NCBI GenBank assembly: GCA_903831595.1
Contig: CAIKXY010000007.1
Location: 3,944-67,943, forward strand
Direction: 5' to 3'
Source: an uncultured bacterium
GTDB taxonomy: Bacteria; Patescibacteriota; Minisyncoccia; Phycocordibacterales; GWA1-40-21
DNA length: 64,000 bases
Shown: positions 23,215 to 56,201 of the stretch, piece by piece
Layout: the number at the start of each line of letters is the position of its first letter
Numbering within the stretch: position 1 is the stretch's first letter
Translations under genes and position numbers: made by a program
Notes under the pieces: model-generated
What the model saw: the letters and a program-made list of their open reading frames with translations, nothing else
Databases searched by the model: none
Told to the model about the DNA's origin: nothing

Positions 23215-23223
23215 AATACAAAT

Positions 23224-26079: not shown

Positions 26080-26080
26080 T

Positions 26081-26109: not shown

Positions 26110-26160
26110 ATTATTTGATATTTAGCATCTACGCTATGGCGTAGATGAAGCATTTTGATT

Positions 26161-26964: not shown

Positions 26965-27104
26965 AAGCTAAGTATAGCAAATACACAATAGTTGTCAAGT
27001 AAAACCGACACTAAAATATAAATTTAAATATAAGCTTATAAATAAGGCTATTTTTTCGTATATATGTCGTTATAAAAACACAAGTAGTGGCCTATCATAT
27101 ATAA

Positions 27105-27132
27105 TTACAACAGAAATTTATTAGTTAGTCTA
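27105..27132. promoter_or_regulatory. conserved upstream motif ACAACAGAAATTTATTAGTTAGTCTA (shared by SBP-4/5/6 promoters)
   Basis: Near-identical copies at 29264-29290 and 31511-31534, all ~50-95 bp upstream of the SBP start codons. Confidence 0.4.
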
Positions 27133-27179
27133 GTCAATTAACCAATAAGTTTCTTTTATTATAAATATTTTATAAATTT

Positions 27180-28283
27180 ATGAATAACATTAAGAGAAAT
27201 TGGTTAGTCGTGGCAGTCGTCTTGTTTTTAGCTGTTACTGTCATCAGTGTTCAGTCAAAGAGTTTTTTTGCTTCTGTACATACTGCAAATCAACAAAATT
27301 CAACAAAAATTATAAAGATTGGTGTCATTACTCCGCTCACTGGTGAAGCTGCAGCGTGGGGAACATGGGTGCAAAAAAGCATGGATTTAGCTTATGCAGA
27401 AATTAATAATCCAAATATTAAGCTTATTTACGAAGATGATAAATGTGATCCAAAAACTGGTGTAGATGCATATATTAAATTAACAACTGTAGACCACGTA
27501 GACATGATAACTGGTCAGGTTTGTTCATCTGTTACTTTAGCCATAGAACCACTCGCAAAAAGAGATAATATACCACTACTTACTACTGGTGCATCCGCTA
27601 CGTCTTTAAGGGGTGCGGGAGATCAATTATTTAATCTTTATTTTTTGAATGATGTCGCATCAATTTATATCGCCAATTACTTAACAAGTATTGGTATCAA
27701 AAAAGCAGCAATCTTGTATGTGAACAATGACTTCGGTGCAACATTACGTGATGGTTTCAAAACACAATTTGAAAATAATGGCGGCACTGTTACCGACATT
27801 GAATCTGTTGATCAAAAATCACAAGATAACAGAACACAGCTAGCAAAAATCAAACAGTCTGGACCAGAATATGTATTTTTGGCCACTTATTATGATAATG
27901 CTGCCTATGCCATGAAACAGAACAAAGAATTGGGTTACGGTTTAAAAACTATTGGGACTATCGATACTTATAATGATAAAAGTATGTCAATTGCTGGCGA
28001 CGGTGTTATCGGACACAAATATACTCGTGCAAAGGCAAATGATTCGAAAGTTAGCGCTGACTTTCTAAAGAATTATCAAGCAAAATATGGTGAAAAGGTT
28101 GATGCTCCAGGACCTACAGCTTATGATGCAATGTACCTAATAAATGATGCAATAAAGAGTGGTAAATCAATCCGTGATTATCTACTTTCTGTAAGAAATT
28201 ATAATGGTGCTTCTGGTAAGCTCAGCATTGATGAAAACGGCGACGTTTCTATAGAACAAGAAGTTATAACGGTAACAAAATAA
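27180..28283 (+). CDS. Liv-type ABC substrate-binding protein, paralog 4 (Cys-pair subfamily)
   Basis: IKIGVITPLTGEAAAWG... YEDDKCD ... QVCSSV, with the conserved Cys pair shared with paralogs 5-8. Confidence 0.75.
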   Translation: MNNIKRNWLVVAVVLFLAVTVISVQSKSFFASVHTANQQNSTKIIKIGVITPLTGEAAAWGTWVQKSMDLAYAEINNPNIKLIYEDDKCDPKTGVDAYIKLTTVDHVDMITGQVCSSVTLAIEPLAKRDNIPLLTTGASATSLRGAGDQLFNLYFLNDVASIYIANYLTSIGIKKAAILYVNNDFGATLRDGFKTQFENNGGTVTDIESVDQKSQDNRTQLAKIKQSGPEYVFLATYYDNAAYAMKQNKELGYGLKTIGTIDTYNDKSMSIAGDGVIGHKYTRAKANDSKVSADFLKNYQAKYGEKVDAPGPTAYDAMYLINDAIKSGKSIRDYLLSVRNYNGASGKLSIDENGDVSIEQEVITVTK

Positions 28284-28287
28284 GTTA

Positions 28288-28320
28288 AAACAAAAAGCCC
28301 CGAAAGGGGCTTTTTGTTTT
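28288..28320. terminator. bidirectional terminator hairpin (AAAAAGCCCCGAAAGGGGCTTTTT family)
   Basis: GCCCC-GAAA-GGGGC stem-loop flanked by an A-run and a T-run. The identical core recurs at 30541-30566. Confidence 0.75.
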
Positions 28321-29170
28321 ATTCTTTTGCAGACCTAGAGTCCCAAGCGAGCTCGAATGCGGTTCTCATCATCTGGTTAATATTTTTATCTTCAATAATG
28401 ACACCAATTAGTCTGTTCTCATTGAAGTTCATAATAGCAATTTTCGATTCTCCATATACTGTTATTTCACCATTAAAACCAAATTTTGCGGGGTCAATAT
28501 ATCTTGCTTTTGGACAGAATTTTTTATCCACGTTTTTTAAATACACATTAAAGTATTTTTTATTTTCTGGTGTATCTGGAACAAGTGCTCGTGATGTCAC
28601 ACCAAGTTTGGCCTTACTTTTGACATATTTTTCCAAAACTTTTTCAGGGATCATTTTAGTAATATCACCAGTTTTCGAAAAACCAACCATTTCATAAGGT
28701 TTTTTCTCGTTCATTTTATCTTCATACATCGATATCCAGCCATCAAGTCCCTCGTAGTAGGTGACTTTCGAGTTGTATTTAAGTAGACCAAACAAACCAC
28801 TGATTTCAGGAATCAATGCTCTTGTTTTATCTATAGATTCCTCAATTTTGGCGGCCTGATTTTGGAAAAAACCAAGAATTTTTTCTGGTTTTTCTATCTG
28901 GTAAAAAAGTTTATTTCTTTTTTCTATTTCATTTATAAAACCACGAATAGACAAAGTTGTTAGCACATCATAAGTTGTAGCTCTTTTTAAACCACAGTAC
29001 TGGGCGATTTTAGAAGGGTATGCACCCCCTAACTCTAAAAGGGAAACATATACAAGAGCTTCTCTTTCCGTAAACCCAGTTTTTTCCATTTTCTTCACCA
29101 AAGCTTCATTTTTAATATTCATATTTCTATTATACACTTTTTCTTCAAATTTGTCGAATATATCCGACAA
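28319..29170 (-). CDS. TrmB-family wHTH transcriptional regulator, paralog 5
   Basis: MEKTGFTEREALVYVSLLELGGAYPSKIAQYCGLKRATTYDVLTTLSIRGFI. Closely related to paralogs 4 and 6. Confidence 0.7.
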   Translation of the reverse strand: MSDIFDKFEEKVYNRNMNIKNEALVKKMEKTGFTEREALVYVSLLELGGAYPSKIAQYCGLKRATTYDVLTTLSIRGFINEIEKRNKLFYQIEKPEKILGFFQNQAAKIEESIDKTRALIPEISGLFGLLKYNSKVTYYEGLDGWISMYEDKMNEKKPYEMVGFSKTGDITKMIPEKVLEKYVKSKAKLGVTSRALVPDTPENKKYFNVYLKNVDKKFCPKARYIDPAKFGFNGEITVYGESKIAIMNFNENRLIGVIIEDKNINQMMRTAFELAWDSRSAKE

Positions 29171-29263
29171 AATATATCCAATTTTATTTTATCCTTATAA
29201 TACAAGGCAAATATCAAATATTTGTCGCAATAAAAACTCAAAACATTATAATACTTGTATAAT

Positions 29264-29290
29264 CACAACAGATTTTTATTAGTTAGTCTA
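29264..29290. promoter_or_regulatory. conserved upstream motif CACAACAGATTTTTATTAGTTAGTCTA
   Basis: Copy of the 27105-27132 motif upstream of SBP-5. Confidence 0.4.
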
Positions 29291-29382
29291 CCCGTTTGTA
29301 AAAACAGGTAGGGTTTGTTGATTAGTTGGATTTTAAGATATGTTAATATAGTATTAATTATTAGTTTAAAATTATAAAAATT

Positions 29383-30528
29383 ATGGAAAAGAAAAAAGGA
29401 AATTTGTGGTCAGTGGTTATCGTTGTGATTTTAGTAATTATAATCGGAGGACTATTTGGATCACAAAGTGCTGGAAGTAAAAGTATAAAAATAGGATATA
29501 TAAGTCCTATGAGCGGGCCAGCAGCTGCTTATGGAGACTATACCAGAAAAGCTTTTCAGCTTGGATTAGATGAATGGAACGCAAATCATACTGACAAGAT
29601 GCAAGCAATCTACGAAGATGGAAAATGTGCTCCAGCCGACGCTGTAACAGCAGCAAACAAATTAATCAATGTAGACAAAGTAAATTTTTTGATGACTTTC
29701 TGTACCGGAGAAACAAACGCTGTGGCTCCAATAGCAGAGCAGAGCAAAATAATACTTTTGACATCTGGAACAACTGCTCCAAATATTGTTAAAGGGAAGT
29801 ATATCTTTAGAAATATCGGTTCTGTGGGGAGCGGATTGCCTGTTTTGACTAAATTAGCATATGATTTTAACAAACAAATTGCATTAATATCTGAAAATAC
29901 TGATTATGCAGCTTCTACAAAAAATGGTTTTACTCAGCAGTACACAGCGCTCGGTGGAAAAGTATTGTTCGATGAATCATTTGATGCAAAAAGTTTAGAC
30001 TTCAAAACAATAATTACAAAATTGAAAGAAAACAAAGTAGAAAGTATTTTTGTTGTTGTACAGTCTCTTGATAATTCTGCAGTTTTGTTTAAACAAATGA
30101 AAGAGTTGAATTATCACCCACAGATATTTACTACAGAGGGGGCCATTAGCACTAAGGCGCTAGATAAATATACCAAAGAAGGTTATGAAAATATTGTTGA
30201 AGGGTCAATACTTGTTCAACCTTATTTTGACAGAGAAAATCCTAAAGCAAAAGCAATGATTAGCACTTATGATATGAAATTTGGTACATCAACAGGGCCA
30301 ATTCCAGAAAGTTACTTGGCAACACACTATGATGCTGTTTCTTTGATAGGGGAAGCAGTGGAAAGCGTTGGAAATAAAGCCGATGCTGTAAGTAATTATT
30401 TCATAACCAAAATCAGCAATTGGAGTGGGGCGATTGGCTCGTTTGGATTTGATAAGACTGGGGATACTATAGTTCAAACTCAAACAAAGATTGTTAAAGG
30501 CGGAAATATTGTGGAGTATAAAAAATAA
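29383..30528 (+). CDS. Liv-type ABC substrate-binding protein, paralog 5
   Basis: IKIGYISPMSGPAAAYGDYTRKAFQLGLDEW...YEDGKCAPAD...FCTGET. Confidence 0.75.
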   Translation: MEKKKGNLWSVVIVVILVIIIGGLFGSQSAGSKSIKIGYISPMSGPAAAYGDYTRKAFQLGLDEWNANHTDKMQAIYEDGKCAPADAVTAANKLINVDKVNFLMTFCTGETNAVAPIAEQSKIILLTSGTTAPNIVKGKYIFRNIGSVGSGLPVLTKLAYDFNKQIALISENTDYAASTKNGFTQQYTALGGKVLFDESFDAKSLDFKTIITKLKENKVESIFVVVQSLDNSAVLFKQMKELNYHPQIFTTEGAISTKALDKYTKEGYENIVEGSILVQPYFDRENPKAKAMISTYDMKFGTSTGPIPESYLATHYDAVSLIGEAVESVGNKADAVSNYFITKISNWSGAIGSFGFDKTGDTIVQTQTKIVKGGNIVEYKK

Positions 30529-30540
30529 GCAATAAAATTA

Positions 30541-30566
30541 AAAAAGCCCCGAAAGGGGCTTTTTTA
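30541..30566. terminator. bidirectional terminator hairpin (same family)
   Basis: AAAAAGCCCCGAAAGGGGCTTTTTT. Confidence 0.75.
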
Positions 30567-31367
30567 ATCTCTCACCGATCTTGAATCCCAAGTTAAATCA
30601 AATATAACGCGCATCATTCCATTGAGTGCTTTATCTTCCATAATAACACCAGTTAATTTATTTTCTCCAAAATTTGTAATAGCAATTTTTGAATCACCGT
30701 ATATTACTATTTCACCATTAAAAACAAATTTTTCTGGCGCAATATATTTTATGACAGGATAAAATTTCTTGGGCGTATTTTCTGGATAAATTGGTAAATG
30801 TTTTCTGTTTTCCGGGGTGTCTGGAATAAATATTTTTGTCGTTATTCCAAGTTCAATTTTTTTCTTTGCATAATTTTTAATAAATTTATCCGGCACTAAC
30901 GGAATTAGTTCACTTGCTTTTGAGAAGGCTAACATTTCGTATGGTTTCTTTATACTTATCATATCCTCATACATAGATAGCAGTCCATCGAGACCTTCAT
31001 AGTAGGTAACCTTTGAATGGTCTTTTAGTAATTCAAATAAATGAGTTATTTCTGGAATTAATGTTTTTGTTTTTTCTAAAGAATTCTCAGATTCGCTTAC
31101 TTTATTTTGGGCGTACCTTAATATTTTTTCTGGTTTTTCTATTTGATAAAATAGTTTATTTTTTCTTTCAATTTCATTTACAAGCCCACGAACAGATAGG
31201 GCAGTAAGTACAAAATATACCGTTGCCCTTTTTAAATCAGTATATTCAGCTATTTTGGAAGGGAACGCTCCACCAAGCTCAAGAAGTGATACATACACCA
31301 AAGCTTCCTTATCTGTGAAGCCAGTTTTTTCTAGTTTTTTGATTAATATCTGGTTTTTTACTTGCAT
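30564..31367 (-). CDS. TrmB-family wHTH transcriptional regulator, paralog 6
   Basis: LEKTGFTDKEALVYVSLLELGGAFPSKIAEYTDLKRATVYFVLTALSVRGLV. Confidence 0.7.
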   Translation of the reverse strand: MQVKNQILIKKLEKTGFTDKEALVYVSLLELGGAFPSKIAEYTDLKRATVYFVLTALSVRGLVNEIERKNKLFYQIEKPEKILRYAQNKVSESENSLEKTKTLIPEITHLFELLKDHSKVTYYEGLDGLLSMYEDMISIKKPYEMLAFSKASELIPLVPDKFIKNYAKKKIELGITTKIFIPDTPENRKHLPIYPENTPKKFYPVIKYIAPEKFVFNGEIVIYGDSKIAITNFGENKLTGVIMEDKALNGMMRVIFDLTWDSRSVRD

Positions 31368-31396
31368 GTGTTAAGTATATCAAGCATGACAATAAT

Positions 31397-31414
31397 TGTC
31401 AATTTTTACTGACA
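31397..31414. promoter_or_regulatory. inverted repeat TGTCA-N8-TGACA in the TrmB-6/SBP-6 divergent region (candidate operator)
   Basis: TGTCAATTTTTACTGACA. The same half-sites occur at 21934-21950. Confidence 0.3.
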
Positions 31415-31510
31415 GAATATGTCATGTATAAATATAGTCATATGATAAGCCATATATATAATATATGTGTCAGCATTAGCACGCAAAACGCTATTGATAT
31501 TATATAATAT

Positions 31511-31534
31511 CAGCAGATATTTATTAGTTTGGCA
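31511..31534. promoter_or_regulatory. conserved upstream motif CAGCAGATATTTATTAGTTTGGCA
   Basis: Third copy of the ACAGAWWTTTATTAGTT motif, ~45 bp upstream of the SBP-6 ATG at 31575. Confidence 0.35.
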
Positions 31535-31574
31535 ATAGATGCTAAAATATTACAAGTTAATTATCAATAAAAAT

Positions 31575-32681
31575 ATGAATAATAAAAAAAGAAATCTCAC
31601 GTCTATAATTATTGTTTGTGCTTTAGTCATCATAGTTATAGGGCTATCGGTTTGGCAAAAAGCAATATCACCAAGGGGTGATATAAAAGTTGCATACGTA
31701 TCATCTCTATCAGGAGATGCAGGAGTATGGGGACAAAGTTTACAAAAAGGTTTTGATTTTGCATTGAATGAAATTAATGCGAAAGGTGGTATTAATGGCA
31801 GAAAGATTACTGCTGTCTATGAAGATGATAAATGCGATGCAGCAACAGGAGTTACTGCATTCAATAAGGTCATCGGAATTGATGGGGTAAAATATATTAC
31901 AGGAACAGTATGTTCTTCTGTTGCAATGAGTGTTGAAAAAAATACACAAGCAAATGGAGTTTTCTATGTTGCTTCTGGTGCAACTGATCCAGAAGTTACA
32001 AAACAAGGAAATGGCCTAGTATTTAGACCATGGGCATCAGATGCTTATGATGCGCAGGAGGTAGGTAGAGATTTGATATCAACGTTTGGCTTAAAAAAAG
32101 TCTCAGTAATTTCTATGAGTGACATTCCTAGTGGTGAAGCAATAAAAAACACTTTTAAAGATGCTGTTGTTGCAAATGGTGGACAAGTTGTTTCTGAAGA
32201 AATGGTAGTTTCAACGAATAAAGATATAAAAACATCCGTTATGAAATTAATCGATAGTTCTCCTGAGGGAGTATATATCGCATCTCTTCCGGATCAGACG
32301 GTTTTAATTATTTCTCAGTTAAAAGCTCTAGGTTACAAAGGAAAGATATTTGTTTATAGTGCTTCGGCTGCGTCAGAAGGTTTTGCGACAAAGGTAAAAA
32401 ACAAAGATAGTGTTTTTTATGTTTTTCCTGTCACAAATCAAGAGACAAATTTCTGGAATGATTACAAAACACAAACCGGCACAAATGCAGACTTACTTGT
32501 AGCCCTTGGTTATGACAGTATGAACATGATTGCTGATGGTATTAAAAGCTGTGGAGAAAATAATACTTGTATAAGAGATTATTTTATAAATGTAGAAAAT
32601 TACCAAATGTCTAGAGGGAAAGTTAGCTTTGATAAGTATGGAGATGTTAGTGGTTTGAAGTATGAAATAAAAGCTTTATAA
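31575..32681 (+). CDS. Liv-type ABC substrate-binding protein, paralog 6 (ORF track start 31539)
   Basis: ATG 31575 gives an MNNKKRNLTSIIIVCALVIIV signal anchor. IKVAYVSSLSGDAGVWG...YEDDKCD...TVCSSV. Confidence 0.75.
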   Translation: MNNKKRNLTSIIIVCALVIIVIGLSVWQKAISPRGDIKVAYVSSLSGDAGVWGQSLQKGFDFALNEINAKGGINGRKITAVYEDDKCDAATGVTAFNKVIGIDGVKYITGTVCSSVAMSVEKNTQANGVFYVASGATDPEVTKQGNGLVFRPWASDAYDAQEVGRDLISTFGLKKVSVISMSDIPSGEAIKNTFKDAVVANGGQVVSEEMVVSTNKDIKTSVMKLIDSSPEGVYIASLPDQTVLIISQLKALGYKGKIFVYSASAASEGFATKVKNKDSVFYVFPVTNQETNFWNDYKTQTGTNADLLVALGYDSMNMIADGIKSCGENNTCIRDYFINVENYQMSRGKVSFDKYGDVSGLKYEIKAL

Positions 32682-32710
32682 ATTTTATTAATTATTAATT
32701 ATAAAATAAT

Positions 32711-33856
32711 ATGGAAAATAAAAAAGGAAAATTATTAGTGTGGGCAATTGTGATCGTTTTGGTGATTGTTGGTATTTTTTTACTATCAAATAGTAAACCA
32801 GTCTCAACAGAGCCAATAAAAATCGGTTTTGTTGCACCGCTTACTGGCCCAGCTGCTGCTTATGGTGAGGTAGAAAAGAATGCAGTTATTATGGCACTTG
32901 AAAAAATTAATGGTAGTGGGGAAACGAAAAGAAATGTTGAAGTTATATATGAGGATGGTAAATGTAATGGTCAAGATGCGGCAACAGCAGCGCAAAAGTT
33001 AATCAATGTTGATAAGGTCAAAATTATTTTAGGTGGTTTGTGTAGTAGCGAAACACTAGCTATCGCCCCGATATCAGAATCAAATAAAGTTATACTTTTC
33101 TCTGCTTTTTCTTCTAGTCCAGCCATTACAAATGCGGGGGATTATGTATTTCGTAATTCACCATCAGACTTAGATTTTGGAAAAGCTGATGCACAATTTA
33201 TTATAAAAAAAGGTGTTAAGAATATTGCTATTATTTCTGAAAATGCTGATTACTCACAAGGTGTACGAACAGTTATGAAAAATGCTTTCCAAAACAATGG
33301 AGTAAATGTAATAGCAGATGAAGTATTTAATTCAGATGTAAAAGATTTTAGAACGCAATTAACAAAAATAAAGTCGCTAAAACCAGAGGCAATATATATT
33401 AATCCAGGAACATCTCCAGATGTGGCGGGAATAATTCCAAAGGAAATGAAAGAACTTGGAATGACAAACACAAAAATATTTGGTAACTATGTTTTGGGGG
33501 ATAAAGTAGCACTAAAAATTGGGGGATCAGCAATGAATGGTATTATATTTAGTGATTATACAGATCTTGCGTTATCAAATCAGGCTATTATAGATCAATA
33601 TAAAACTGAATTTCAAAAAGACCCAGCAAATAATTATCCTTTGATGGCTAGATATGATTCAGTATTTATTATTACGGACGCAATTAGAAGTTGTGGAACT
33701 GATGACAGTAGCTGTATAAAAAATTATTTATATAAAATGAAGAGTTTTTCTGGTGCTCTTGGTACATATAGATTCGATTCTAATGGGGATTTGTTGAATA
33801 AAGAATTGGCAGTTCATAAAATAATTCAAAATGGAGTCGCTGTGTTGATAAAATAA
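32711..33856 (+). CDS. Liv-type ABC substrate-binding protein, paralog 7 (tandem with paralog 6)
   Basis: IKIGFVAPLTGPAAAYGEVEKNAV...YEDGKCNGQDAATAAQKLINVDKV...GGLCSSETLA. Close to paralog 8. Confidence 0.75.
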   Translation: MENKKGKLLVWAIVIVLVIVGIFLLSNSKPVSTEPIKIGFVAPLTGPAAAYGEVEKNAVIMALEKINGSGETKRNVEVIYEDGKCNGQDAATAAQKLINVDKVKIILGGLCSSETLAIAPISESNKVILFSAFSSSPAITNAGDYVFRNSPSDLDFGKADAQFIIKKGVKNIAIISENADYSQGVRTVMKNAFQNNGVNVIADEVFNSDVKDFRTQLTKIKSLKPEAIYINPGTSPDVAGIIPKEMKELGMTNTKIFGNYVLGDKVALKIGGSAMNGIIFSDYTDLALSNQAIIDQYKTEFQKDPANNYPLMARYDSVFIITDAIRSCGTDDSSCIKNYLYKMKSFSGALGTYRFDSNGDLLNKELAVHKIIQNGVAVLIK

Positions 33857-33859
33857 TAC

Positions 33860-33888
33860 AAAAAGTCCCGAAAAGGGGCTTTTTGTTT
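33860..33888. terminator. bidirectional terminator hairpin (variant of the same family)
   Basis: AAAAAGTCCCGAAAAGGGGCTTTTTG. Confidence 0.7.
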
Positions 33889-33890
33889 TG

Positions 33891-34634
33891 CTATTTATTT
33901 TCATCTGGCAACATCTCCCACATAATTTCGAAAATTTGTTTTATTGAATCGTGAATTTTAGGGCTTTCAATAATAATACCTATTTTATCTGAAAAATTCA
34001 TAATAGCGGTTTTATTTTTGTCATACAGCATAATTTCATTTTCCATGTTAAATTTTTTCTCGCTAACCATTTTAGATTTTCTGAGTTGTTGGACATTCTT
34101 TCCAACATACGGTTTTAATTTTTCAGCATTAGGTAGTATGGTTCGTATGTGGATATTTTTTTTTAACCTTTCTGGCACATAGATTTTTTCTTGGTATGAA
34201 TCACTTCCAATTGTACTTAAGCCAGCAAACCAAGATTGAATCTCCTTATTGGGTGTTAAAAGTGTATCTCTGTATACTTCCTTTAACCCCTCTTCGCCCT
34301 CAAAATAACTTACTGTGGGTTTTTTATCAATTGCTGATCCTATTGATAAAAGATTGACCATGTTTTGTTCTAATTCTTTTTTGTTTTCATCAAGAATAGA
34401 CAAAATCATTTTAGGGCTTTGTGCAGTATAATATTTTAGATTTTTTCTTACTGATTGACTAACTAGCCCTTTTTTTATTAGGTTTTCAAGTTCTATATAA
34501 GTAGTTGGTCTTTTTACTCCGGATTTTTGTGAGATTCTAGACGCAGTCGTTTCCCCAAGTTCATAACTAGCAAGGTATACTGAGGCTTCTTTGGGTGATA
34601 GACCAGCTTTTATTAAGATGTTAATGTAATTCAT
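33891..34634 (-). CDS. TrmB-family wHTH transcriptional regulator, paralog 7 (divergent member)
   Basis: N-terminal HTH (LIKAGLSPKEASVYLASYELGETTASRISQKSGVKRPTTYIELENLIKKGLVS). 247 aa. Confidence 0.65.
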   Translation of the reverse strand: MNYINILIKAGLSPKEASVYLASYELGETTASRISQKSGVKRPTTYIELENLIKKGLVSQSVRKNLKYYTAQSPKMILSILDENKKELEQNMVNLLSIGSAIDKKPTVSYFEGEEGLKEVYRDTLLTPNKEIQSWFAGLSTIGSDSYQEKIYVPERLKKNIHIRTILPNAEKLKPYVGKNVQQLRKSKMVSEKKFNMENEIMLYDKNKTAIMNFSDKIGIIIESPKIHDSIKQIFEIMWEMLPDENK

Positions 34635-34830
34635 TGTTTTTTAAGCAAATTGTTCTACTGTTATTAAAACTGACAACAGATAGATTATATACAAATACAT
34701 ATAATATGTCAAGTAAAATAAAGGGATATTAGAAATAGCTACAATTTTACATTGTCAATTTATCAAACACTAATTGCATATTCGCAAAATAAGCATATAA
34801 TTGATGTGTTATAAGTTAATTATTAAAAAC

Positions 34831-35973
34831 ATGAATAAAAACAATAAAATATTAATAAGTTTAGTTGTGATAATAATCGTTATCATTTTAGGATCTTTAC
34901 TAATAAATAACAAACCAGCCTCAACTGAACCAATTAAATTTGGTTTTATCGCACCACTTACTGGTGATGCTGCGATATATGGAACAGATGAAAGAAATGC
35001 AACTGCACTTGCTGTACAAGAGATCAACAATGCTGGCGGAGTAAATGGTAGAAAAATTGAAGTTTTGTACGAAGATGGAAAATGTAACGGAAAAGATGCT
35101 GCAAACTCTGCACAAAAGCTCGTTAATGTTGACCAAGTCAGAGTAATTATTGGAGGGGGATGCAGTAGTGAAACTTTAGCTGCAGCGCCTGTTGCAGAAG
35201 CAAATAAAGTAATTTTATTCTCACCATTTTCGAGTAGCCCAGCCATAACAGACGCAGGAGACTACGTTTTCAGAAATTATCCATCCGATTCAGAGGTTGT
35301 AAGACAACAAGCCCGACTTGTTATCAATTATGGTTACAAAAAAATTGCAATAATTTCAGAAAATTCTGATTATGCTATTAGTTCAAAAACTATTTTTTCT
35401 GATGAAGTTAAAAAACAAGGTGCTCAAATTGTAGCAGATGAAATATTTGCTCAGGGTGCTCGAGATTTTAAAACAAACATTCTAAAAATAAAATCAGCCA
35501 ATCCAGACGCAATATTTATCAACCCTCAATCTGGAGTGACTGGCGGTTTGTTATTAAAACAACTCAGAGAGATGGGAGTTAATACTCAAGCTTTTAGTTA
35601 CTTTGTGTTTGGTGATAAAGATGCAATAAAGACAGCAGGGTCAGCAATAAATGGAATGATTTATTTTGATACCGTTGGTCTTATAACAGCAAAAGGGCAG
35701 GCTTTCAACGATAAATACATTGCACAATTTGGTCAGATACAAAGCAGCGCATATGGGGTTGGGGCACAGTACGATGCAGTTCATATTTTAGCAAACGCTG
35801 AAGCAAAATGTTCTGATGATACCGCTTGTATAAAAAATTATTTATATAAAATGTCACCATATGATGGAGTTATCGGTAAATACAACTTTGATTCAAATGG
35901 AGATATTAAAGGTATAAGTGCACTTGTCCCAAAGATAGTAAAAAATGGAGTAGCGGAATTATATATTAAATAA
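34831..35973 (+). CDS. Liv-type ABC substrate-binding protein, paralog 8 (ORF track start 34801 TTG)
   Basis: ATG 34831 gives an MNKNNKILISLVVIIIVIIL anchor. IKFGFIAPLTGDAAIYG...YEDGKCNGKDAANSAQKLVNVDQV...GGGCSSETLA. Confidence 0.75.
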   Translation: MNKNNKILISLVVIIIVIILGSLLINNKPASTEPIKFGFIAPLTGDAAIYGTDERNATALAVQEINNAGGVNGRKIEVLYEDGKCNGKDAANSAQKLVNVDQVRVIIGGGCSSETLAAAPVAEANKVILFSPFSSSPAITDAGDYVFRNYPSDSEVVRQQARLVINYGYKKIAIISENSDYAISSKTIFSDEVKKQGAQIVADEIFAQGARDFKTNILKIKSANPDAIFINPQSGVTGGLLLKQLREMGVNTQAFSYFVFGDKDAIKTAGSAINGMIYFDTVGLITAKGQAFNDKYIAQFGQIQSSAYGVGAQYDAVHILANAEAKCSDDTACIKNYLYKMSPYDGVIGKYNFDSNGDIKGISALVPKIVKNGVAELYIK

Positions 35974-35983
35974 ATACTCAAAC

Positions 35984-36016
35984 AAAAAAGCGGTGCTTTC
36001 CAGCACCGCTTTTTTG
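35984..36016 (+). terminator. rho-independent terminator
   Basis: AAGCGGTGCTTTCCAGCACCGCTTTTTTG. Confidence 0.75.
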
Positions 36017-37247: not shown

Positions 37248-38300
37248 TTATATTTCTTTCAACTTAGCTCTTATTTGTTTCAATATTTCACTAGCAACTT
37301 TTCCATTCTCTTTCAAGAATGTTCTTGCTGAATCATAACCGCGTCCAATTTTTTCACCATTGTATTCATACGAAGAACCAGATTTTTTTATTATTTCCAT
37401 TTTTTCTCCAAGCGCTAGTATTTCTCCTTCTTTTGAAATACCTTCGTTATACATAAGATCAAATTCTGTTTGTTTGAATGGGGCAGCAACTTTATTTTTT
37501 ACAACTTTTACACGGACTCTTCCTCCCATTATTTCTTCGCCCTTCTTTATTTGTGCAATTCTTCTTATATCAAGTCTGACAGAAGTATAAAATTTCAAAG
37601 CTTTTCCTCCCGGAGTAGTTTCTGGGTTGCCAAACATAACGCCAATTTGCATTCTAATTTGATTTATGAAAATTACGATTGTTTTTGACTTTGCGACAAT
37701 CGCAGTGAGTTTTCGGAGAGCCTGTGACATCAACCTTGCTTGTTTACCGACGTGATATGCCCCCATGTCGCCTTCAATCTCATCTTTAGGGGTAAGTGCA
37801 GCCACAGAGTCAATAACAATGATATCTATCTTTCCTGAGCGGACCAAGCTATCAACAATATCAAGTGCTTGTTCTCCATTGTCTGGCTGAGAAATTAATA
37901 GTTGGTCAATTTTTACTCCAATCTTTTTTGCATATTCTGGGTCCATGGCATGTTCTGCGTCTATATAAGCACAGACACCGTCCATTTTTTGTGCTTCGGC
38001 AACAGCGTGAAGGGCAAGGGTAGTTTTTCCTGAAGATTCTGGTCCAAATATTTCAATAATTCTACCTCTTGGGAATCCTCCAACGCCAAGAGCAGCATCA
38101 AGGCCAATTGAGCCAGACGGAATTACATTTATGTTTAATCTTGGTTTATCTCCAAGCATCATAATAGAATCATCACCAAATTTGGTTTTTATTGCATCAA
38201 TAGCGTCTTCTATCTTGTGTGAATTTGCTTCCTTTTTTTCTACTTGTGTCTCAACTGATTCGTTTGAATCTTGTTTTTTTTCTTTTACTTTTTTTACCAT
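37248..38300 (-). CDS. recA: recombinase RecA
   Basis: [20 protein letters not shown] Walker A, plus L1/L2 loops. 350 aa. Confidence 0.9.
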
Positions 38301-43121: not shown

Positions 43122-46100
43122 ATGAGTAAAAAATTAATTGGTATCTTTGCGTCAGTCGCATTGGTACTTTCATTGGCAGGTGCAAATGTTGCATCAGCTT
43201 TGACAGCAAGTGATATATCTATGCTTTTAGGAGCAGGGATAATCAGTGCTTCTCAAGCCGCAACACTTACAGCTTCATTAGCTCCAGCATCAGTCACAGT
43301 GTCAGCAGGATATAACTTTGCAAAAGATTTAACAATCGGAAGCAAGGGTGCTGATGTTACAGCATTACAAAATTTGCTAGGAGTTTCTCCAGCAACAGGA
43401 TTTTTTGGAGCAAAAACAAAAGCTGCTCTTATAACATTCCAGTTGTCAAAAGGAATTACACCTGCATCAGGATATTTTGGTGCTAAAACAAGAAAAATAG
43501 CAAATGCTTCAGCAGGAACTACAGTTTCAAATGGTACAACAACAGTCGTTCCAACAGGAACAAGTGTCGCAGTATCATTAGCAGCAAGTTCACCTGTTTC
43601 AGGTGCTATTATTGCAGGTCAAGCAGCAGCTGATCTTGCGGAATATACATTCCAAAACACATCAGCAGCTCCAGCAGTTGTCACAAACGTAACATTACAA
43701 AGAGGTGGAGTATCAGCAGATACATCACTTTCAAATGTTTATTTGTTCCAAGGTGCTGTTAGATTGACAGACGCAGCAACAGTTTCAGCAGGAAAAATTA
43801 CATTTAATGCTGGACAAGGATTGTTTACAATCCCTGCAGGTTCTTCAGTTACAATAGCTGTTAAGTCAGATATTCTTCTTTCAGCAGCAGCAGGCCAGAC
43901 AGTTAATGTTTCACTTTTGAGTGTAACATTAGGGTCAACAAGCCAAGTAGTCTCAGCTGTATATCCAGTATCTGGTGCAGTCATGACAGTTGCTTCAGCA
44001 GGAGATATTTCACCACTTAGTCTTGCAAAAGTAGCAGTTAGTCAAAGTGTTACAGCAGGAACATTAAGTCAAACAATTTGGTCAGCAAATTTATCTGGTA
44101 TAACAAGATATGTCTGGTTAAAGAGTTTGGCAGTTAAAGTTATTGGTTCAATTCCTTCAAATTCACTTCAGAATTTGAATCTCTACATTTCAGGTATTCA
44201 AGCAGCTACAGCTTCTGGTGTGGATGCAAACGGTATGATCACTTTCGATCTTACTGCTAAGCCATACAAGATAGACAGCTCAAGAACTCTTGAAGTAAGA
44301 GCAGATATTGTTAATGGTTCATCAAGATCATTCTCATTATCACTTCAGAATGCAGCTGATATTTCTGTTATAGATTCAAACTATAACGTTGGAATTGCAG
44401 CTTCAGGACTTCCAATAACAACAGATAATATTTCTGTTACCGTTGGTAATGTATCTATTTCTCAGGATTCAAACTTGAGTGCTGGAAATATAGTTTACGG
44501 CTCAACAAATATTCCTTTGGCACAATACACATTAAAAGCTTATGGTGAAGATGAAAAGATTTCATATCTTAACATTTCAGCCAACCAAAAATTGTCAAAT
44601 GTTGCTTTGTACGCAAACGGCATTGCAATTTCAAGCTCACAAAATGTATTGCCAACAGCAAGCACTTTGTTTAGCTTAGGTTCTTCTTTGGTAATAGGTG
44701 CAAACCAAACAGTTACACTTACAGTTAAAGGAGATTTGAAAGATTCAACAGGTAGTAGTACTCCAGTTGGTTCTCAGGTTATTATTACTTTGGGTGGTTA
44801 TGCAAATAACACACAAGGTTCATATTCTTCACAAATGTGTACATTCCCTGGAACGGGAGGTACAATTGCTGGTTGTCCAACAGTGGTTTCTACAATTGCT
44901 GGCCCAACAATGACAATCGTCGGTGGAGGTTTGACAGTTTCTACAAATGCTTCATTTAACAACTCATCAATAACAGCCAATTCAACTGGTGTTAAGATAG
45001 GTTCGTTTAATTTGAGCTCAAACTCATCAGAACCAGTAAGAATTACTACTTTGGTGTTGGGTATTGCTTCATCAAGCACTTTACCTTTGTCAGGTTTGTC
45101 AAATTTGAAAATTTCAGATGCTAATACATCTGTAAATCCTCAAAGTTCAAACAACTTTGGAGTAAACTTCACAATCCCAGCAAATGGCACACACGTAGTA
45201 GATGTATTTGCAGATGTCGGAGCTCTAGCAGGTATTGCAAATAGCGCTTCAACAAATGTTACTAGTACAACAACAGGAACAACAGCGACATATGCTACTG
45301 GTACAATTACTGTTTCATCACCAAGTCTTCAAGCTTCAACAACAGTTAACGGGGTTCTTTATGCTGTTAACATTGCAAACGCTACACAATCAACTTCAAC
45401 AACAGCTGCACAATTAGCTACAGCTATTCAGAATGGACAATCAGGTGTTGTTACCGCAACAGCAAATGCAGGTGTTATAACACTTACATCAGTTGCAATT
45501 GGTACTGGTAACGGTATCAATACAGGTAATGCTATAACAATGGTTGCAGGAGGAAATACAGCGGTTAATGGTGCCACATTAGTTGGTGGTACAGCTGGTA
45601 CAGCATCAACTGCTACAGTCCAACCTGGTTCAATAGTTGCAGGAAACACATTTACGTTAAAAGTAAATGGTATTACATACAGCTATGTTGCTAACACAGG
45701 CGATACGAACATATCAGTTTCTGATGGTTTGAAAGCAGCTATTGGAAGTGCACTTTCTGGTATTGCTACAATTAATGCAACCGGAAATACTTCAGTTATA
45801 ATAACTGCAAGTCCAATAACATCTGCTAATAATACTATTGTTCAAGGTGTCACATCGGGAACTATTACAGGTACAACATCTTTAACAAATCAAATTATTA
45901 CAAGTTTGGCAGTCACAGCTACAGGTGTTAATAGCAATATTGATGCCTCACAAGTTACACCTATATATGGACAGGTATTGACAGTTGGAAATGGTTCATT
46001 GTCAACAACAGGTCTTGCATCAGGTATTACACCAACATCAGCACAACTTGTTATCGGTGGTTCAACATCAGCAAACGCAGTTATTGGAACATATACATTT

Positions 46101-46907
46101 AAATCAACTATCGGTACTTCAGTTATTACTGATCTTGGATTTATGGCAAGCTCTACAAACTTGAATGCGATTACATCAATTTCTGTTGGAGGAGTCACAG
46201 TTCCAGTTTCAGCAGGTGCTACAACAACAATTTCTGGTCTAAATATTCAAATCCCAGTTTCAAATGTGGGTACAAATATTCCAGTTTCTGTTGCTTATAA
46301 CACAGTTGGAGTAACAGCCGGAGGTATTACATCTGGAGTTCCAGTTCAGTTGGTATTAACTTCTGTAAAATATCAAGCAGGAAATAATACAACAACGTTC
46401 TATCCAAACAAACCAACATTGGCTATGTCACCAGTAGCTGCTTACCCACTTGTTTCTTTGGTGTCTTCATCAAGAACAGGTTTGTCAAACAGCACTTCAG
46501 TTAAATTGGCCGACATAACAATTACAGTTGTTGGTAAGACAGTTGAAATGTCTACAATTGGAGTCACTGTATCACTTGGAAAAACAGCAAGCACAACAGG
46601 CTCAGCTCTTATTCTAAAGGATAACAACAACACAATCGTAGCAACATCATCAGCCATTGGTACAGATGGTGCAAATAGAACACTTACATTTGTTCCTACA
46701 TATAACTTAGCCCCAGGTACATATAATTATGCACTATACGGCTCTGTTAGTGCCGTAACATCTGGTGTTAATACAGATTCTCTTACAACACAGCTAAGTG
46801 CACCAACAACATTAGGATGGTACGATGTCGAAGGAAATTCAAGTCTCTTAGATGCGACTTTGATCCCTTCATATAACACATCAAATCAAGCCTACTTGTC
46901 TAACTAA
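43122..46907 (+). CDS. giant secreted cell-surface protein (S-layer/adhesin-like), S/T/A/G/V-rich, with N-terminal peptidoglycan-binding-like repeat
   Basis: Signal peptide MSKKLIGIFASVALVLSLAGANVASA. Tandem GADVTALQNLLGV...GFFGAKTKAALITFQ / GYFGAKTRKI segments resemble PG_binding_1. ~1100 aa low-complexity beta-rich region. Confidence 0.7.
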   Translation: MSKKLIGIFASVALVLSLAGANVASALTASDISMLLGAGIISASQAATLTASLAPASVTVSAGYNFAKDLTIGSKGADVTALQNLLGVSPATGFFGAKTKAALITFQLSKGITPASGYFGAKTRKIANASAGTTVSNGTTTVVPTGTSVAVSLAASSPVSGAIIAGQAAADLAEYTFQNTSAAPAVVTNVTLQRGGVSADTSLSNVYLFQGAVRLTDAATVSAGKITFNAGQGLFTIPAGSSVTIAVKSDILLSAAAGQTVNVSLLSVTLGSTSQVVSAVYPVSGAVMTVASAGDISPLSLAKVAVSQSVTAGTLSQTIWSANLSGITRYVWLKSLAVKVIGSIPSNSLQNLNLYISGIQAATASGVDANGMITFDLTAKPYKIDSSRTLEVRADIVNGSSRSFSLSLQNAADISVIDSNYNVGIAASGLPITTDNISVTVGNVSISQDSNLSAGNIVYGSTNIPLAQYTLKAYGEDEKISYLNISANQKLSNVALYANGIAISSSQNVLPTASTLFSLGSSLVIGANQTVTLTVKGDLKDSTGSSTPVGSQVIITLGGYANNTQGSYSSQMCTFPGTGGTIAGCPTVVSTIAGPTMTIVGGGLTVSTNASFNNSSITANSTGVKIGSFNLSSNSSEPVRITTLVLGIASSSTLPLSGLSNLKISDANTSVNPQSSNNFGVNFTIPANGTHVVDVFADVGALAGIANSASTNVTSTTTGTTATYATGTITVSSPSLQASTTVNGVLYAVNIANATQSTSTTAAQLATAIQNGQSGVVTATANAGVITLTSVAIGTGNGINTGNAITMVAGGNTAVNGATLVGGTAGTASTATVQPGSIVAGNTFTLKVNGITYSYVANTGDTNISVSDGLKAAIGSALSGIATINATGNTSVIITASPITSANNTIVQGVTSGTITGTTSLTNQIITSLAVTATGVNSNIDASQVTPIYGQVLTVGNGSLSTTGLASGITPTSAQLVIGGSTSANAVIGTYTFKSTIGTSVITDLGFMASSTNLNAITSISVGGVTVPVSAGATTTISGLNIQIPVSNVGTNIPVSVAYNTVGVTAGGITSGVPVQLVLTSVKYQAGNNTTTFYPNKPTLAMSPVAAYPLVSLVSSSRTGLSNSTSVKLADITITVVGKTVEMSTIGVTVSLGKTASTTGSALILKDNNNTIVATSSAIGTDGANRTLTFVPTYNLAPGTYNYALYGSVSAVTSGVNTDSLTTQLSAPTTLGWYDVEGNSSLLDATLIPSYNTSNQAYLSN

Positions 46908-52784: not shown

Positions 52785-52836
52785 AATCAGTATTATAGTA
52801 TAAGTATTTAGTATACAGTATAAAAAAATAAACATC

Positions 52837-53415
52837 ATGATTTCATTAAAAGAAAAACAGAATAAAGCATTTGAATCCTTAAAGGGAGCTTTGGGTTTAA
52901 AGAACAAAATGCAAACACCAAAAGTTGTGAAGGTTGTTTTGAGTTCTGGTACCGGTTCATTCAAAGACAAAAATAAAAACAAAGTTGTTGAAGATAGACT
53001 TACAAAAATCTCTGGACAGAAAGTTATGCTTAAAGTTGCAAAGAAATCAGTCGCGACTTTCAAAGTTAGAGAAGGGGATCCAGTCGGATATCAAGTTACC
53101 CTAAGAGGACACAGAATGTTTGATTTTCTAGATAAGCTTGTTTATGTTGCTTTGCCACGAACAAAAGATTTTAGAGGTCTTACTGCTCATGCAATAGACA
53201 ATATGGGCAATTTTACAATCGGAATGAAAGAAAATACAGTTTTTCCAGAAGCATCAAACGAAGAATTAAAAGATGTTTTCGGATTATCAATCACAATAGT
53301 TACAAATCAAAAAGATAAAGTCTCAGCAAGAGCTTTCCTAGAATATTTGGGCTTCCCATTCAAGAAAGGAGAGGATGCTAAAAGAATTAAGAGCAAAAGA
53401 AAAAAGACCGCATAA
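52837..53415 (+). CDS. rplE: 50S ribosomal protein L5
   Basis: PKVVKVVLSSGTG...GYQVTLRGHRMFDFLDKLVYVALPRTKDFRG. Confidence 0.9.
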   Translation: MISLKEKQNKAFESLKGALGLKNKMQTPKVVKVVLSSGTGSFKDKNKNKVVEDRLTKISGQKVMLKVAKKSVATFKVREGDPVGYQVTLRGHRMFDFLDKLVYVALPRTKDFRGLTAHAIDNMGNFTIGMKENTVFPEASNEELKDVFGLSITIVTNQKDKVSARAFLEYLGFPFKKGEDAKRIKSKRKKTA

Positions 53416-53511
53416 TCGCGGTTTTTTTACTTCTCCTAAAATATGTTTGACATTTGTCAGTATATTTAGTATAAAAACTACATATTAAGTTCTTTTATAT
53501 AAACGTCATTT

Positions 53512-53560
53512 AAGACGAGCTTTTTTGGCCTTATTCCATAGGACTAAAAAAGCTCGTCTT
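53512..53560 (+). repeat. long hairpin at the left border of the GC-rich insertion
   Basis: AAGACGAGCTTTTTT-N19-AAAAAAGCTCGTCTT, a 15-bp inverted repeat directly after rplE. Confidence 0.55.
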
Positions 53561-53617
53561 AATGAGAGCCGCAAAATAGTCAGGGCGAATCTGACAAAAG
53601 ACGAAAGGAGGTGTGCT

Positions 53618-54388
53618 ATGGATAAAACCATGGTAAGCCAAATGTCGAGAGGCCAAGGTCACGAGTTTTTGAATAAACTCGAAGCCGCAGGTCTCAACAG
53701 TCACCTTTGTCAAAAGGTGATAGATTCAAAAAACAATGAGCTCGCCACAAAAGTGGTAAGACTTATTGAACACGGAGGCTTTGAAGCATCAACCTCACAG
53801 AAGAGTGCCCGTGAAATTATGGGTAAAAACTTCTTCGGCACTGAGGAAGCGATAAAGTACTTTGGGGTTAATCCATCAAAGGGACAGCTTGATTTTTTTG
53901 CTGGGGTACCCTTCCCTGAAGAAGTGCTCAGGTTCGTGAAAAATACCCACATTCTTGTTGCCGTTTTCAAGATGTCGGTTTTAGACATTCGCTTATGTGT
54001 CATAGACAAGGGTTTGCTTTTCTTTAAACAGGACTGGTATAACAGCATGGCCTTTGCTAAAGACAAGGGCGAGGTTGGGTGGCAACTGATTCGCAAGACT
54101 CCAGTCGCCGGCTCGATAAACAGGACGTGGGGTTGGCAGAAAGCACTCCTCGCTGAAAACGAGGAAACGCCTACTGCACAGGTGATGGTTTACTCTATCA
54201 TCGGACATTTTCTTGCCAATGGCGAGAAATTGTTCATCGATGTCTACGTTCGCACGTCGAGTCTCGATTCAGTTGGCAACAACGTCAGCGTCGGTATTTT
54301 TGATTTCCTCGGTCTTACCGTTTGCAGTGGACGTGGTGAAAAAAACGGCTGCATCGGGTTGGCGTCTGCTTTTGATACAGCGAGATGA
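53618..54388 (+). CDS. ORFan protein on a GC-rich (~45-48% by eye) island inserted inside the ribosomal protein operon (ORF track start 53525)
   Basis: ATG 53618 is preceded by AGGAGGTG. Codon usage is GC-rich and unlike the flanking genes. No family recognised. Confidence 0.55.
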   Translation: MDKTMVSQMSRGQGHEFLNKLEAAGLNSHLCQKVIDSKNNELATKVVRLIEHGGFEASTSQKSAREIMGKNFFGTEEAIKYFGVNPSKGQLDFFAGVPFPEEVLRFVKNTHILVAVFKMSVLDIRLCVIDKGLLFFKQDWYNSMAFAKDKGEVGWQLIRKTPVAGSINRTWGWQKALLAENEETPTAQVMVYSIIGHFLANGEKLFIDVYVRTSSLDSVGNNVSVGIFDFLGLTVCSGRGEKNGCIGLASAFDTAR

Positions 54389-54398
54389 AGTTTTTCTG

Positions 54399-54456
54399 CC
54401 CGCACCTTTTCGTTTTGTTTAACAAACAATAACGAAAAGGTGCGGGTTTTCTTTTT
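54399..54456 (+). terminator. long terminator hairpin at the right border of the GC-rich insertion
   Basis: CCCGCACCTTTTCGTT-N16-AACGAAAAGGTGCGGG, then TTTTCTTTTT. Confidence 0.65.
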
Positions 54457-54620
54457 ATACAATAATCTTTGACCCCCAACACTATTTTTATTAATCGAGT
54501 TTTTTCTTAATTTAGAACAAGTTTTATATCACCAATTTTAGTTATTATTATGATTTTACAGAAATATTGACGGGGTCAATGAAATATAGTCATCTTATCT
54601 GAATAAGACTCGTTATTTCA

Positions 54621-54649
54621 TTGACTTTCCACTAGGTTCTTGCTAGTAT
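54621..54649 (+). promoter_or_regulatory. sigma70-like promoter re-initiating the distal ribosomal genes (rpsN onward)
   Basis: TTGACT-17 nt-TAGTAT, ~35 nt upstream of the rpsN ATG 54684. Confidence 0.5.
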
Positions 54650-54683
54650 ATTGCGACAAGCTTTTTCAAGCTTTTATTTAATT

Positions 54684-54869
54684 ATGGCTAAAAAATCAGT
54701 AATAGCTAGATCAAAAAAACCAGTAAAATTCGCATCAAGAGTAGTGCGAAGATGTTTCCGTTGCGGAAGAAAACACGGTTACATGAGAGAGTTCGATCTA
54801 TGCAGAATTTGCTTTAGAGAGTTTGCTAATCAGGGAAAAATTCCCGGTGTAAAAAAATCATCATGGTAA
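54684..54869 (+). CDS. rpsN: 30S ribosomal protein S14 type Z (zinc-binding, 61 aa); ORF track start 54651
   Basis: [16 protein letters not shown]...[25 protein letters not shown], with CxxC...CxxC. Confidence 0.85.
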
Positions 54870-55804: not shown

Positions 55805-55850
55805 AAAGTATATAGTATAAGTATTCAGTATATAGTATAAAAAACACAAA

Positions 55851-56201
55851 ATGAAAAGATCAATAACAAAATCATTAAAAATAGAAGTAAGACACAATAG
55901 AATCAGAGCAAAAATCTCTGGTACTTCATTGATGCCACGACTTTGTGTTTACAAATCAAATACTTCAGTTTACGGACAAGTTATTGATGACTCAAAAGGA
56001 ATTACTTTGGCTGCATATTCAGCTGACAAGGCAAAAGGAAAAGGACTTCTAGAGAAATCCGCAAATGCAGGAAAAGAATTGGCAAAACTTGCACAAGAAA
56101 AAGGCATATCAAAAGTAGTTTTTGATAGAGGTGGATTTATTTACACAGGTAAAATAAAAGCCTTTGCCGATGGCGCAAGAGAAGGTGGGCTTAAATTTTA
56201 A
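55851..56201 (+). CDS. rplR: 50S ribosomal protein L18
   Basis: RHNRIRAKISGTSLMPRLCVYKSN...VVFDRGGFIYTGKIKAFADGAREGGLKF. Confidence 0.9.
   Translation: MKRSITKSLKIEVRHNRIRAKISGTSLMPRLCVYKSNTSVYGQVIDDSKGITLAAYSADKAKGKGLLEKSANAGKELAKLAQEKGISKVVFDRGGFIYTGKIKAFADGAREGGLKF

Follow-up and report, generated by a model that had tools for sequence, protein, structure and literature searches.

A GC-rich gene between rplE and rpsN in a Patescibacteria ribosomal protein cluster is probably a solitary member of a diversity-generating retroelement variable-protein family

The DNA analysed here, referred to as the window, is a stretch of 64,000 nucleotides (nt) from an uncultured Patescibacteria bacterium (assembly GCA_903831595.1, contig CAIKXY010000007.1, positions 3,944 to 67,943 of the forward strand). 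It is AT-rich (33.1% GC) and carries the S10/spc ribosomal protein cluster. Within this cluster about 1.27 kb separates rplE from rpsN, whose identity was supported by Pfam (Ribosomal_L5 and Ribosomal_S14), and this segment is the GC maximum of the window (500-nt windows of 0.43-0.48 against a mean of 0.331, sd 0.035). Its open reading frame (ORF) reached 46.2% GC, and GC at third codon positions (GC3) was 0.50, compared with 0.225±0.036 for the 56 other ORFs of the window (z=7.7). A first reading made from the letters alone, called the sequence-only reading below, had described the segment as a GC-rich island that splits two normally adjacent genes, and both parts of that description held. 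The evidence below suggests, with a probability that we put at about 85%, that the gene is a solitary member of a family of variable proteins (VPs) of diversity-generating retroelements (DGRs), lying in a native gap between two transcription units.

The island appears to be a self-contained transcription unit, with a promoter, a structured leader of ~135 nt, a ribosome-binding site (RBS), an ORF of 256 codons and an intrinsic terminator (Table 1; loci of relatives carry L numbers throughout). The promoter upstream of the ORF had been missed by the sequence-only reading, which proposed a protein of 257-287 aa. The ORF stood and the length did not, as the family alignment and the conserved RBS favoured the ATG at 53618 (256 aa) over an upstream TTG (287 aa). 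The AGGAGG proposed as the RBS was found six bases ahead of this ATG. The two long hairpins said to bracket the ORF were also recovered, with scores well outside those of shuffled controls both for the upstream one (53506-53565, -32.3 kcal/mol, z=-9.1) and for the downstream one, which is followed by a T-run (54398-54447, -33.4 kcal/mol, z=-9.95). The left border of the insert is uncertain between 53429 and 53446, and TTGAC stands at each end (53447 and 54621).

Table 1. Features at the rplE-rpsN junction of the window (positions in the 64,000-nt stretch)
Feature	Position	Strand	Evidence
rplE (ribosomal protein L5), upstream neighbour	52837..53415	+	ORF; Pfam Ribosomal_L5 and L5_C on the exact protein
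Native terminator-like hairpin (GACCGC..GCGGT and T-run), overlapping the rplE stop codon	53406..53428	+	-13.4 kcal/mol, z=-5; also in empty-site loci L089, L090, L087 and L093
Inserted segment relative to empty-site relatives, ~1.2 kb	53429..54620	.	Alignments of filled and empty sites
Sigma-70-like promoter of the unit, TTGACA-17-TATAAA	53447..53475	+	Read from the sequence; in most family loci an equivalent promoter keeps a constant spacing to the leader
Conserved 5' box AGTTCTTTTA (AGTTCTTTGA/AA in the family consensus), close to the predicted start of the transcript	53488..53497	+	Can pair with the Shine-Dalgarno (SD) region in the minimum free energy (MFE) fold
Family-specific structured 5' leader	53502..53620	+	Covariance model R1: 102 bits, E=3e-28
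Leader part P1, long hairpin	53506..53565	+	
Leader part P2, small hairpin	53579..53595	+	
Leader part SD, AGGAGG, then ATG	53606..53611	+	
Probable DGR-type variable protein gene, 256 aa	53618..54388	+	Helical N-domain (~1-107) and C-type-lectin-fold domain (~108-256)
Region homologous to the variable repeat (VR) and initiation of mutagenic homing (IMH) site of DGR-linked members; looks decayed here	54266..54385	+	VR and template repeat (TR) pairs in 36 relatives; P0074 hypervariability
Long hairpin of ~22 pairs and T-run, interpreted as the unit's intrinsic terminator	54398..54456	+	Fold; compensatory change in L091; terminator at the same place in the family
AT-rich tail of the insert	54457..54620	.	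Similar only to same-lineage L085 and L088 among the fetched loci
Native rpsN promoter TTGACT-17-TAGTAT, outside the insert	54621..54649	+	Near-identical in empty-site relatives
rpsN (zinc-type ribosomal protein S14, 61 aa), downstream neighbour	54684..54869	+	Pfam Ribosomal_S14

No usable match was found for the 256-aa protein in Pfam (to E<=10), PHROGs (best E=0.21), PADLOC (0 families) or NCBIfam. The sequence-only reading had called the gene an ORFan, which proved wrong. Although unmatched in these family collections, the protein had 727 homologues at E<=0.01 in a 90%-clustered collection, the best of which showed 56-68% identity (~255 aa), and it matched 1649 representatives of 50%-identity clusters. 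According to source names and GTDB records the family is almost wholly confined to Patescibacteria, where Paceibacterota and Vogel-, Uhr-, Giovannoni-, Nealson-, Staskawicz-, Jorgensen-, Komeili-, Lloyd-, Veblen- and Gribaldobacteria are represented. A few members lie on contigs labelled otherwise, namely L065 (Methanothrix sp.), L083 (Verrucomicrobiia) and L013, L027 and L036 (Gammaproteobacteria); these labels are most likely errors of binning or labelling, with transfer as the alternative. Apart from DGR parts, the genomic neighbours varied in every family locus (e.g. alaS and a holin-like gene, pilM and pilO, or prfA and rpsB).

The fold of the protein was predicted with AlphaFold from a 104-sequence alignment, used in place of a 23-sequence alignment that gave an unusable model (predicted local distance difference test, pLDDT, of 43). 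The resulting model (pLDDT 95.1, predicted template modelling score, pTM, of 0.89) showed a helical N-domain followed by an α/β C-domain, and the C-domain has a fold of the C-type lectin (CLec) type, like that of dozens of animal C-type lectins and of three DGR variable proteins with solved structures, TvpA, Mtd and TaqVP. Targets of DGRs display their variable residues on a C-terminal CLec (or Ig) fold, and the AlphaFold model of the window protein has such a C-terminal fold. Foldseek searches against PDB and BFVD gave no significant match, and a profile search against PDB sequences found nothing. The similarity to FGE-sulfatase is structural only, with no Pfam PF03781 match at E<=10; likewise, FGE-like domains (those of the FGE paralogue and EgtB and the C-terminal domains of SenA and OvoA) resemble the protein in fold only, and the window protein gave no evidence of enzymatic residues. 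No signal peptide was seen, and the protein looks cytoplasmic.

The link to DGRs was found in the relatives of the gene. In L002 the homologue adjoins bAvd and RVT_1 genes, and its last 121 nt recur 483 nt downstream with 87% identity; at 15 of the 16 mismatches the downstream copy, in which AAC codons occur, has an adenine. This pattern is the signature of the TR and VR of a DGR. A scripted scan detected a TR in 36 of 89 loci, 350-400 nt past the stop codon, 114-132 nt long and 82-95% identical to the VR, with the mismatches almost exclusively at TR adenines (e.g. 19/19, 20/20 and 17/17). These 36 loci showed a standard cassette order of VP gene, TR, bAvd on the opposite strand and reverse transcriptase (RT). 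The cassette of L026, for example, lies between prfA and rpsB, with Pfam scores of 86 bits for RVT_1 and 61 bits for bAvd. Furthermore, the 12 natural variants in P0074, a 90%-identity cluster that is sister to that of the window protein, were almost identical over ~215 residues and hypervariable only in the last ~33.

Two variations on this arrangement were also seen. Six loci (L009, L021, L022, L023, L029 and L052) carry two tandem VP paralogues, each with its own leader, and a single shared TR downstream. A second subfamily (L046, L048, L050-L058, L060, L061, L067, L068, L072, L081 and L084) has an unrelated N-terminus (MKWTEIPxGxxNxAxQR...) on the same C-type-lectin domain, often behind the same leader, and represents an exchange of N-terminal modules such as has been proposed for DGR targets.

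We compared the family with known DGR systems. The CLec variable proteins of Bordetella phage (Mtd), Treponema denticola (TvpA) and Thermus aquaticus (TaqVP) have a similar fold, but no sequence similarity to the window protein was detectable and the helical N-terminal domain of the window family differs from theirs. Mtd is a phage tail fibre and TvpA a lipoprotein, in contrast to the cytoplasmic appearance of the window protein, and, in contrast to these systems, neither a TR nor Avd and RT genes accompany the window copy within 64 kb. DGRs of Patescibacteria, also called the Candidate Phyla Radiation (CPR), have reportedly been treated by Paul et al. in 2017. The family resembles the 'clade 2' DGRs of this group (Roux et al. 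2021, PMC8144416), which are cell-encoded and Patescibacteria-restricted. In the sections of that report drawn on here, their targets typically have no recognisable transmembrane or conserved domain and were predicted to conceal new variants of CLec, a description that the present family matches. The structured 5' leader, the CTTGA-containing 3' untranslated region (UTR) and the ORF-restricted GC3 excess described below are not mentioned in those sections of the CPR DGR accounts.

The window copy itself is solitary. No repeat of the 3' end of the ORF was found within the 64-kb window, and tblastn with the RT and Avd of L026 found nothing there, so that the window copy has neither the cognate TR nor the adjacent RT and Avd genes of the 36 loci above. 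Solitary copies are common in the family, as RT was absent within 2.5 kb in 31 of the 59 loci with enough flank. In the last 40 codons of 29 RT-linked loci, the frequency of adenine at third positions (A3) had a mean of 0.008 and a maximum of 0.05, and that of cytosine (C3) was 0.60. Solitary copies were bimodal in VR A3, with a subset at 0.10-0.33; the window VR showed an A3 of 0.15 and a C3 of 0.35. DGR targets carry an IMH element where the VR ends at its 3' side, often with a GC-rich inverted repeat beyond it. The IMH-like end motif of the family, GCYMRGAAR, was present in 22 of the 29 RT-linked loci and absent from the window copy, and the strong hairpin past the window stop codon carries a T-run and is terminator-like. 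GC3 over the whole ORF was also lower than in RT-linked copies (mean ~0.70). VR third-position adenine could serve as a simple marker that separates DGR-maintained from abandoned copies.

Variants of the window protein were also looked for. Its cluster holds a single sequence (in two start-codon versions) on at least 4 contigs, with no VR-confined variants among the records. Metagenome contigs were scanned with a 17-mer from the 3' end of the VR, to find VR variants or a cognate TR, and at least 120 matches resulted; among the matches listed all were chance hits and none encoded a relative. The ORF is intact and all family-invariant residues are kept, so the protein is, as judged from its sequence, probably still functional. 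Taken with less assurance than family membership, the window copy is probably no longer diversified and may be a relic of frozen specificity.

The insertion itself was clear from the same site in relatives. The identical sequence with the same junctions was present in three independent assemblies (L085, GCA_903954215.1; L088, GCA_903938855.1; L086, a Logan assembly), and a divergent allele occupies the same rplE-rpsN site in L091; the join is therefore not an assembly artefact. Among relatives with an identical S14 protein, three states of the site were found. Four loci (L087, L089, L090 and L093) are empty, with rplE followed directly by rpsN across a spacer of 77-171 nt; L085 and L088 carry the insert of the window; and L091 has an allele of 61% identity with an IS200-like Y1 transposase behind it. 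The empty site reads ...GACCGCATAATAGCGGTTTTTTTG followed by TTGACTTTCCCCTAGGTTCTTGCTAGTATATTGCGAC...ATG. The rplE terminator and the rpsN promoter are already present in the empty sites, nearly base for base (alignments of filled and empty sites; e.g. L089:~855-925), so both are native and no new promoter was needed. The promoter TTGACT-17-TAGTAT is thus present where the sequence-only reading placed it, but its supposed role in compensating for the insertion was not upheld. By its sequence context, the insert appears to occupy a boundary between transcription units that was there before it, and the operon is less disrupted than a first look suggests. The ribosomal cluster of this lineage is natively interrupted between rplE and rpsN by this terminator-like hairpin and promoter, and so probably comprises at least two transcription units where the insert is absent too.

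The window and L091 alleles differ unevenly. Their flanks are 92-98% identical, the leader 89% and the first ~50 codons 94%, and the rest of the gene falls to 60-70%, where third positions diverge fastest and are near saturation. The terminator hairpin has a compensatory change in L091. This mosaic pattern indicates that alleles have been exchanged by recombination within the unit. The insert tail at 54457-54620 takes the position of the Y1 transposase gene in L091 and of TR, Avd and RT in DGR-linked relatives.

The transposase gene of L091 (L091:3165-3910, 219 aa, Pfam Y1_Tnp) lies in the same rplE-rpsN spacer. It is AT-rich, is flanked on both sides by the palindrome CCCCGAGGTTGAACCTCGGGG and has its own REP-like hairpins (ccccgaggttgaacctcgggg); its AT-rich composition and its own hairpins indicate a separate insertion. 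The rplE-rpsN spacer seems to be a recurrent landing site. Other assemblies of close relatives break at this junction, with an N-run in L087 (~3860-3960) and contigs that start at rpsN in L092 and L094, which is consistent with strain heterogeneity in which forms with and without the insert co-exist. In addition, a 61-nt AT-rich repeat (TATAGTATAAGTATTTAGTATACAGTATAAAAAA..., 77% identical) was found at 52794-52854 and 55811-55871, just upstream of rplE and rplR. It holds several TAGTATA or TATAGT boxes that resemble -10 elements, and it may indicate additional promoters within the ribosomal cluster.

To interpret the GC-rich island, the composition of the gene was compared across the family. 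In 83 loci from different species the family gene had a mean of 54.6% GC against 42.6% in its flanks, an excess of 12 points, and in 36 RT-linked loci the VP gene had 55.5% against 38.4% for the RT of the same cassette, an excess of 17 points (e.g. L026:4944-7697 and L056:5001-7552). Avd genes were also GC-poorer than the VP gene of their cassette. The GC plateau ends exactly at the ORF borders, and GC3 lies at 0.60-0.73 along the whole gene, where C-ending codons are favoured and A-ending ones rare. A gradient of GC3 toward the VR, sought as a mark of conversion linked to retrohoming, was not found; GC3 was uniformly high along the gene. The GC excess was 13.8 points in RT-linked and 10.5 points in solitary copies (p=0.046), a weak link. 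These results showed that the GC excess is an intrinsic trait of the target gene and not a mark of recent import. As it is family-wide and restricted to the ORF even beside an AT-rich RT, it gives no evidence of a recent foreign origin. Of the horizontal acquisition that had been proposed partly from the GC contrast, the atypical composition was confirmed and the recent foreign origin was not.

The leader of the unit is also a family trait. Upstream of the gene the family keeps the order promoter, AGTTCTTTGA box, P1, GAGACAAGUCGCC stretch, P2, A-rich linker and an invariant AGGAGGURUGCS-AUG. P1 is a long hairpin (AUGAGACGAGC...GCUCGUCUCAU) whose base is conserved in sequence, and P2 is a small hairpin (CCGAGCGAAUCGG). 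In a 20-sequence alignment, on which RNAalifold was also run, 94.5% of the pair cells were canonical compared with 34-45% in slid controls, and 17 of the 27 leader pairs showed compensatory changes; the observed values were reached by none of 500 shuffles. A covariance model of the leader had a plus-strand match in 63 of 83 family sources (the window and 62 of 82 others, e.g. L031:4880-5000 and L037:3534-3657) and matched the window only once. No match was found in the four empty-site loci or in 571 kb of unrelated metagenome DNA. Of the top-scoring matches, those checked run up to the VP start codon, and several stand before tandem paralogues. Rfam 15 gave no family at gathering score in the whole window, and at E<=10 the region showed only microRNA-like chance hairpin matches. 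In the MFE fold of the window the 5' box pairs with the SD region, and this predicted pairing suggests translational control of the window gene; inspection by eye showed no covariation of the 'GUCGC' box in the leader with the context of the start codon.

Downstream of the gene, most relatives have a 3' UTR with 4-5 CTTGA pentamers, ~8-11 nt apart, in the first ~100 nt past the stop codon (among L001-L084, e.g. L018:5766-5865). The repeats are followed by a small GAGGGCTTGnCCCTC hairpin and then by a terminator, GAGCCTCCGCG...CGCGGAGGCTC-TTTT. The window (54389-54460) and L091 have no CTTGA repeats and a different terminator.

These observations can be joined in the following way. The last ~35 residues of the CLec domain would form a ligand-binding surface, which in relatives may be rewritten by mutagenic retrohoming. 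The TR ~360 nt downstream would be transcribed, the adjacent RT and bAvd would reverse-transcribe it with misincorporation opposite adenines, and the resulting cDNA would replace the VR. The most likely ancestor of the window copy is a DGR cassette, or else a target gene exchanged horizontally, which may have come to rest in the natural gap that separates the rplE terminator from the rpsN promoter. The copy would now encode a binding protein of frozen specificity for its presumed ligand, with a VR that is drifting toward host composition.

Several points weigh against this account. The solitary-target reading leaves the family-wide high GC3 unexplained. The 'decay' of the window copy is limited to the VR and IMH signature, as the ORF and its family-invariant residues are intact. 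About half of the family loci with enough flank have no RT within 2.5 kb, and since some of these keep a pristine, adenine-free VR, solitary copies are not always inactive. A DGR (TR-Avd-RT) elsewhere in the genome, beyond the 64-kb window, could still diversify the window copy in trans. Remote or non-adjacent targets are documented for DGRs of other lineages, e.g. in Treponema (Wu et al. 2018, PMC5758913, as far as the passages used here describe them), and contig-based surveys miss remote targets according to the sections of Roux et al. cited above (PMC8144416). We consider such an active remote target unlikely. The remote targets described in those passages of Wu et al. also lie away from the RT, but they have a matching TR elsewhere in the genome, whereas the window copy has no known TR and a VR signature that looks eroded, with an A3 three times the maximum of the RT-linked loci and no IMH-like end. 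The identical sequence across independent assemblies, the single cluster member and the 17-mer scan, with only chance matches among those listed, also speak against ongoing diversification.

The remaining explanations are far less probable than a solitary DGR target. A recently acquired foreign cargo gene, such as a toxin, immunity or phage-derived gene tolerated through a compensating rpsN promoter, would account for the presence/absence polymorphism in close relatives, the strongly atypical GC3 and the unit's own promoter and terminator. It resembles in this respect the phage 'morons', which are likewise autonomous promoter-gene-terminator units of atypical composition between genes that are adjacent in relatives. 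However, the window unit has no IMG/VR relative and is not phage-borne, its composition is that of its gene family rather than of a donor genome, and, unlike defence or toxin-antitoxin cargo, it has neither a match in PADLOC or PHROGs nor a conserved partner gene. With the rplE terminator and rpsN promoter already in place in empty sites, and with fold and VR/TR evidence that identify a DGR target, foreign cargo is very improbable, and its proposed toxin, immunity or phage origin found no support. A non-autonomous element of IS200/IS605 type, or another hairpin-ended transposable element, would fit the hairpins that bracket the ORF and the Y1_Tnp gene that L091 has at this site. The L091 gene, however, is a separate insertion with different hairpins of its own, and no Y1 transposase was found in the window insert or beside the gene in the other family loci examined. 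Moreover, the upstream hairpin is part of the transcribed leader, where it stands between promoter and RBS and shows covariation of RNA type, and a T-run follows the downstream one, as in a terminator; this leaves a transposable element with hardly any probability. GC-rich islands in AT-rich genomes are often RNA genes, and the breaks or N-gaps at the junction in L087, L092 and L094 might point to a chimera. Nevertheless, the same junctions recur in three independent assemblies and beside a divergent allele, divergence is fastest at third codon positions, more than 1600 clusters retain the ORF, the protein model is confident and Rfam gave no match. The probability of an assembly chimera, or of a structured-RNA gene misread as a protein gene, is accordingly close to nil.

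Elsewhere in the window, a repeated gene-pair array was observed at 22000-36000, in which plus-strand ORFs of ~370-390 aa alternate with minus-strand ORFs of ~250-267 aa. It contains direct repeats of 284-300 nt at 26159, 28317 and 30562 that are 63-74% identical to a reference copy, and it is likely to consist of paralogous transporter or binding-protein modules. GC was also elevated (0.40-0.42) at 43122-46907 and 37248-38300. The 1261-aa ORF at 43122-46907 has an unusually high second-codon-position GC (0.536) and a low GC3 (0.172), and this pattern suggests an effect of amino-acid composition rather than foreign DNA.

For this locus, the ordinary reading of a solitary DGR target in a pre-existing gap replaces that of a foreign ORFan within an operon. 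The case is also a caution that a local GC excess need not mean recent horizontal transfer, since here it is an intrinsic property of the gene family. For the family, the results give a confident CLec-fold assignment to a very large group of 'hypothetical' Patescibacteria proteins without a Pfam model. Whether the leader, the CTTGA 3' UTR and a GC3 of ~0.65-0.70 that is decoupled from both host and RT together reflect undescribed RNA-level biology of Patescibacteria DGR target units is a tentative idea, which we regard as doubtful. If it were true, it would mean a new class of cis-regulatory RNA that controls hypermutation targets or, alternatively, an involvement of the target's mRNA or DNA in retrohoming or in biased gene conversion, and solitary copies would be natural 'DGR-off' controls. 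The features that merit follow-up are the leader RNA, which is absent from Rfam, and the GC3 excess restricted to the ORF.

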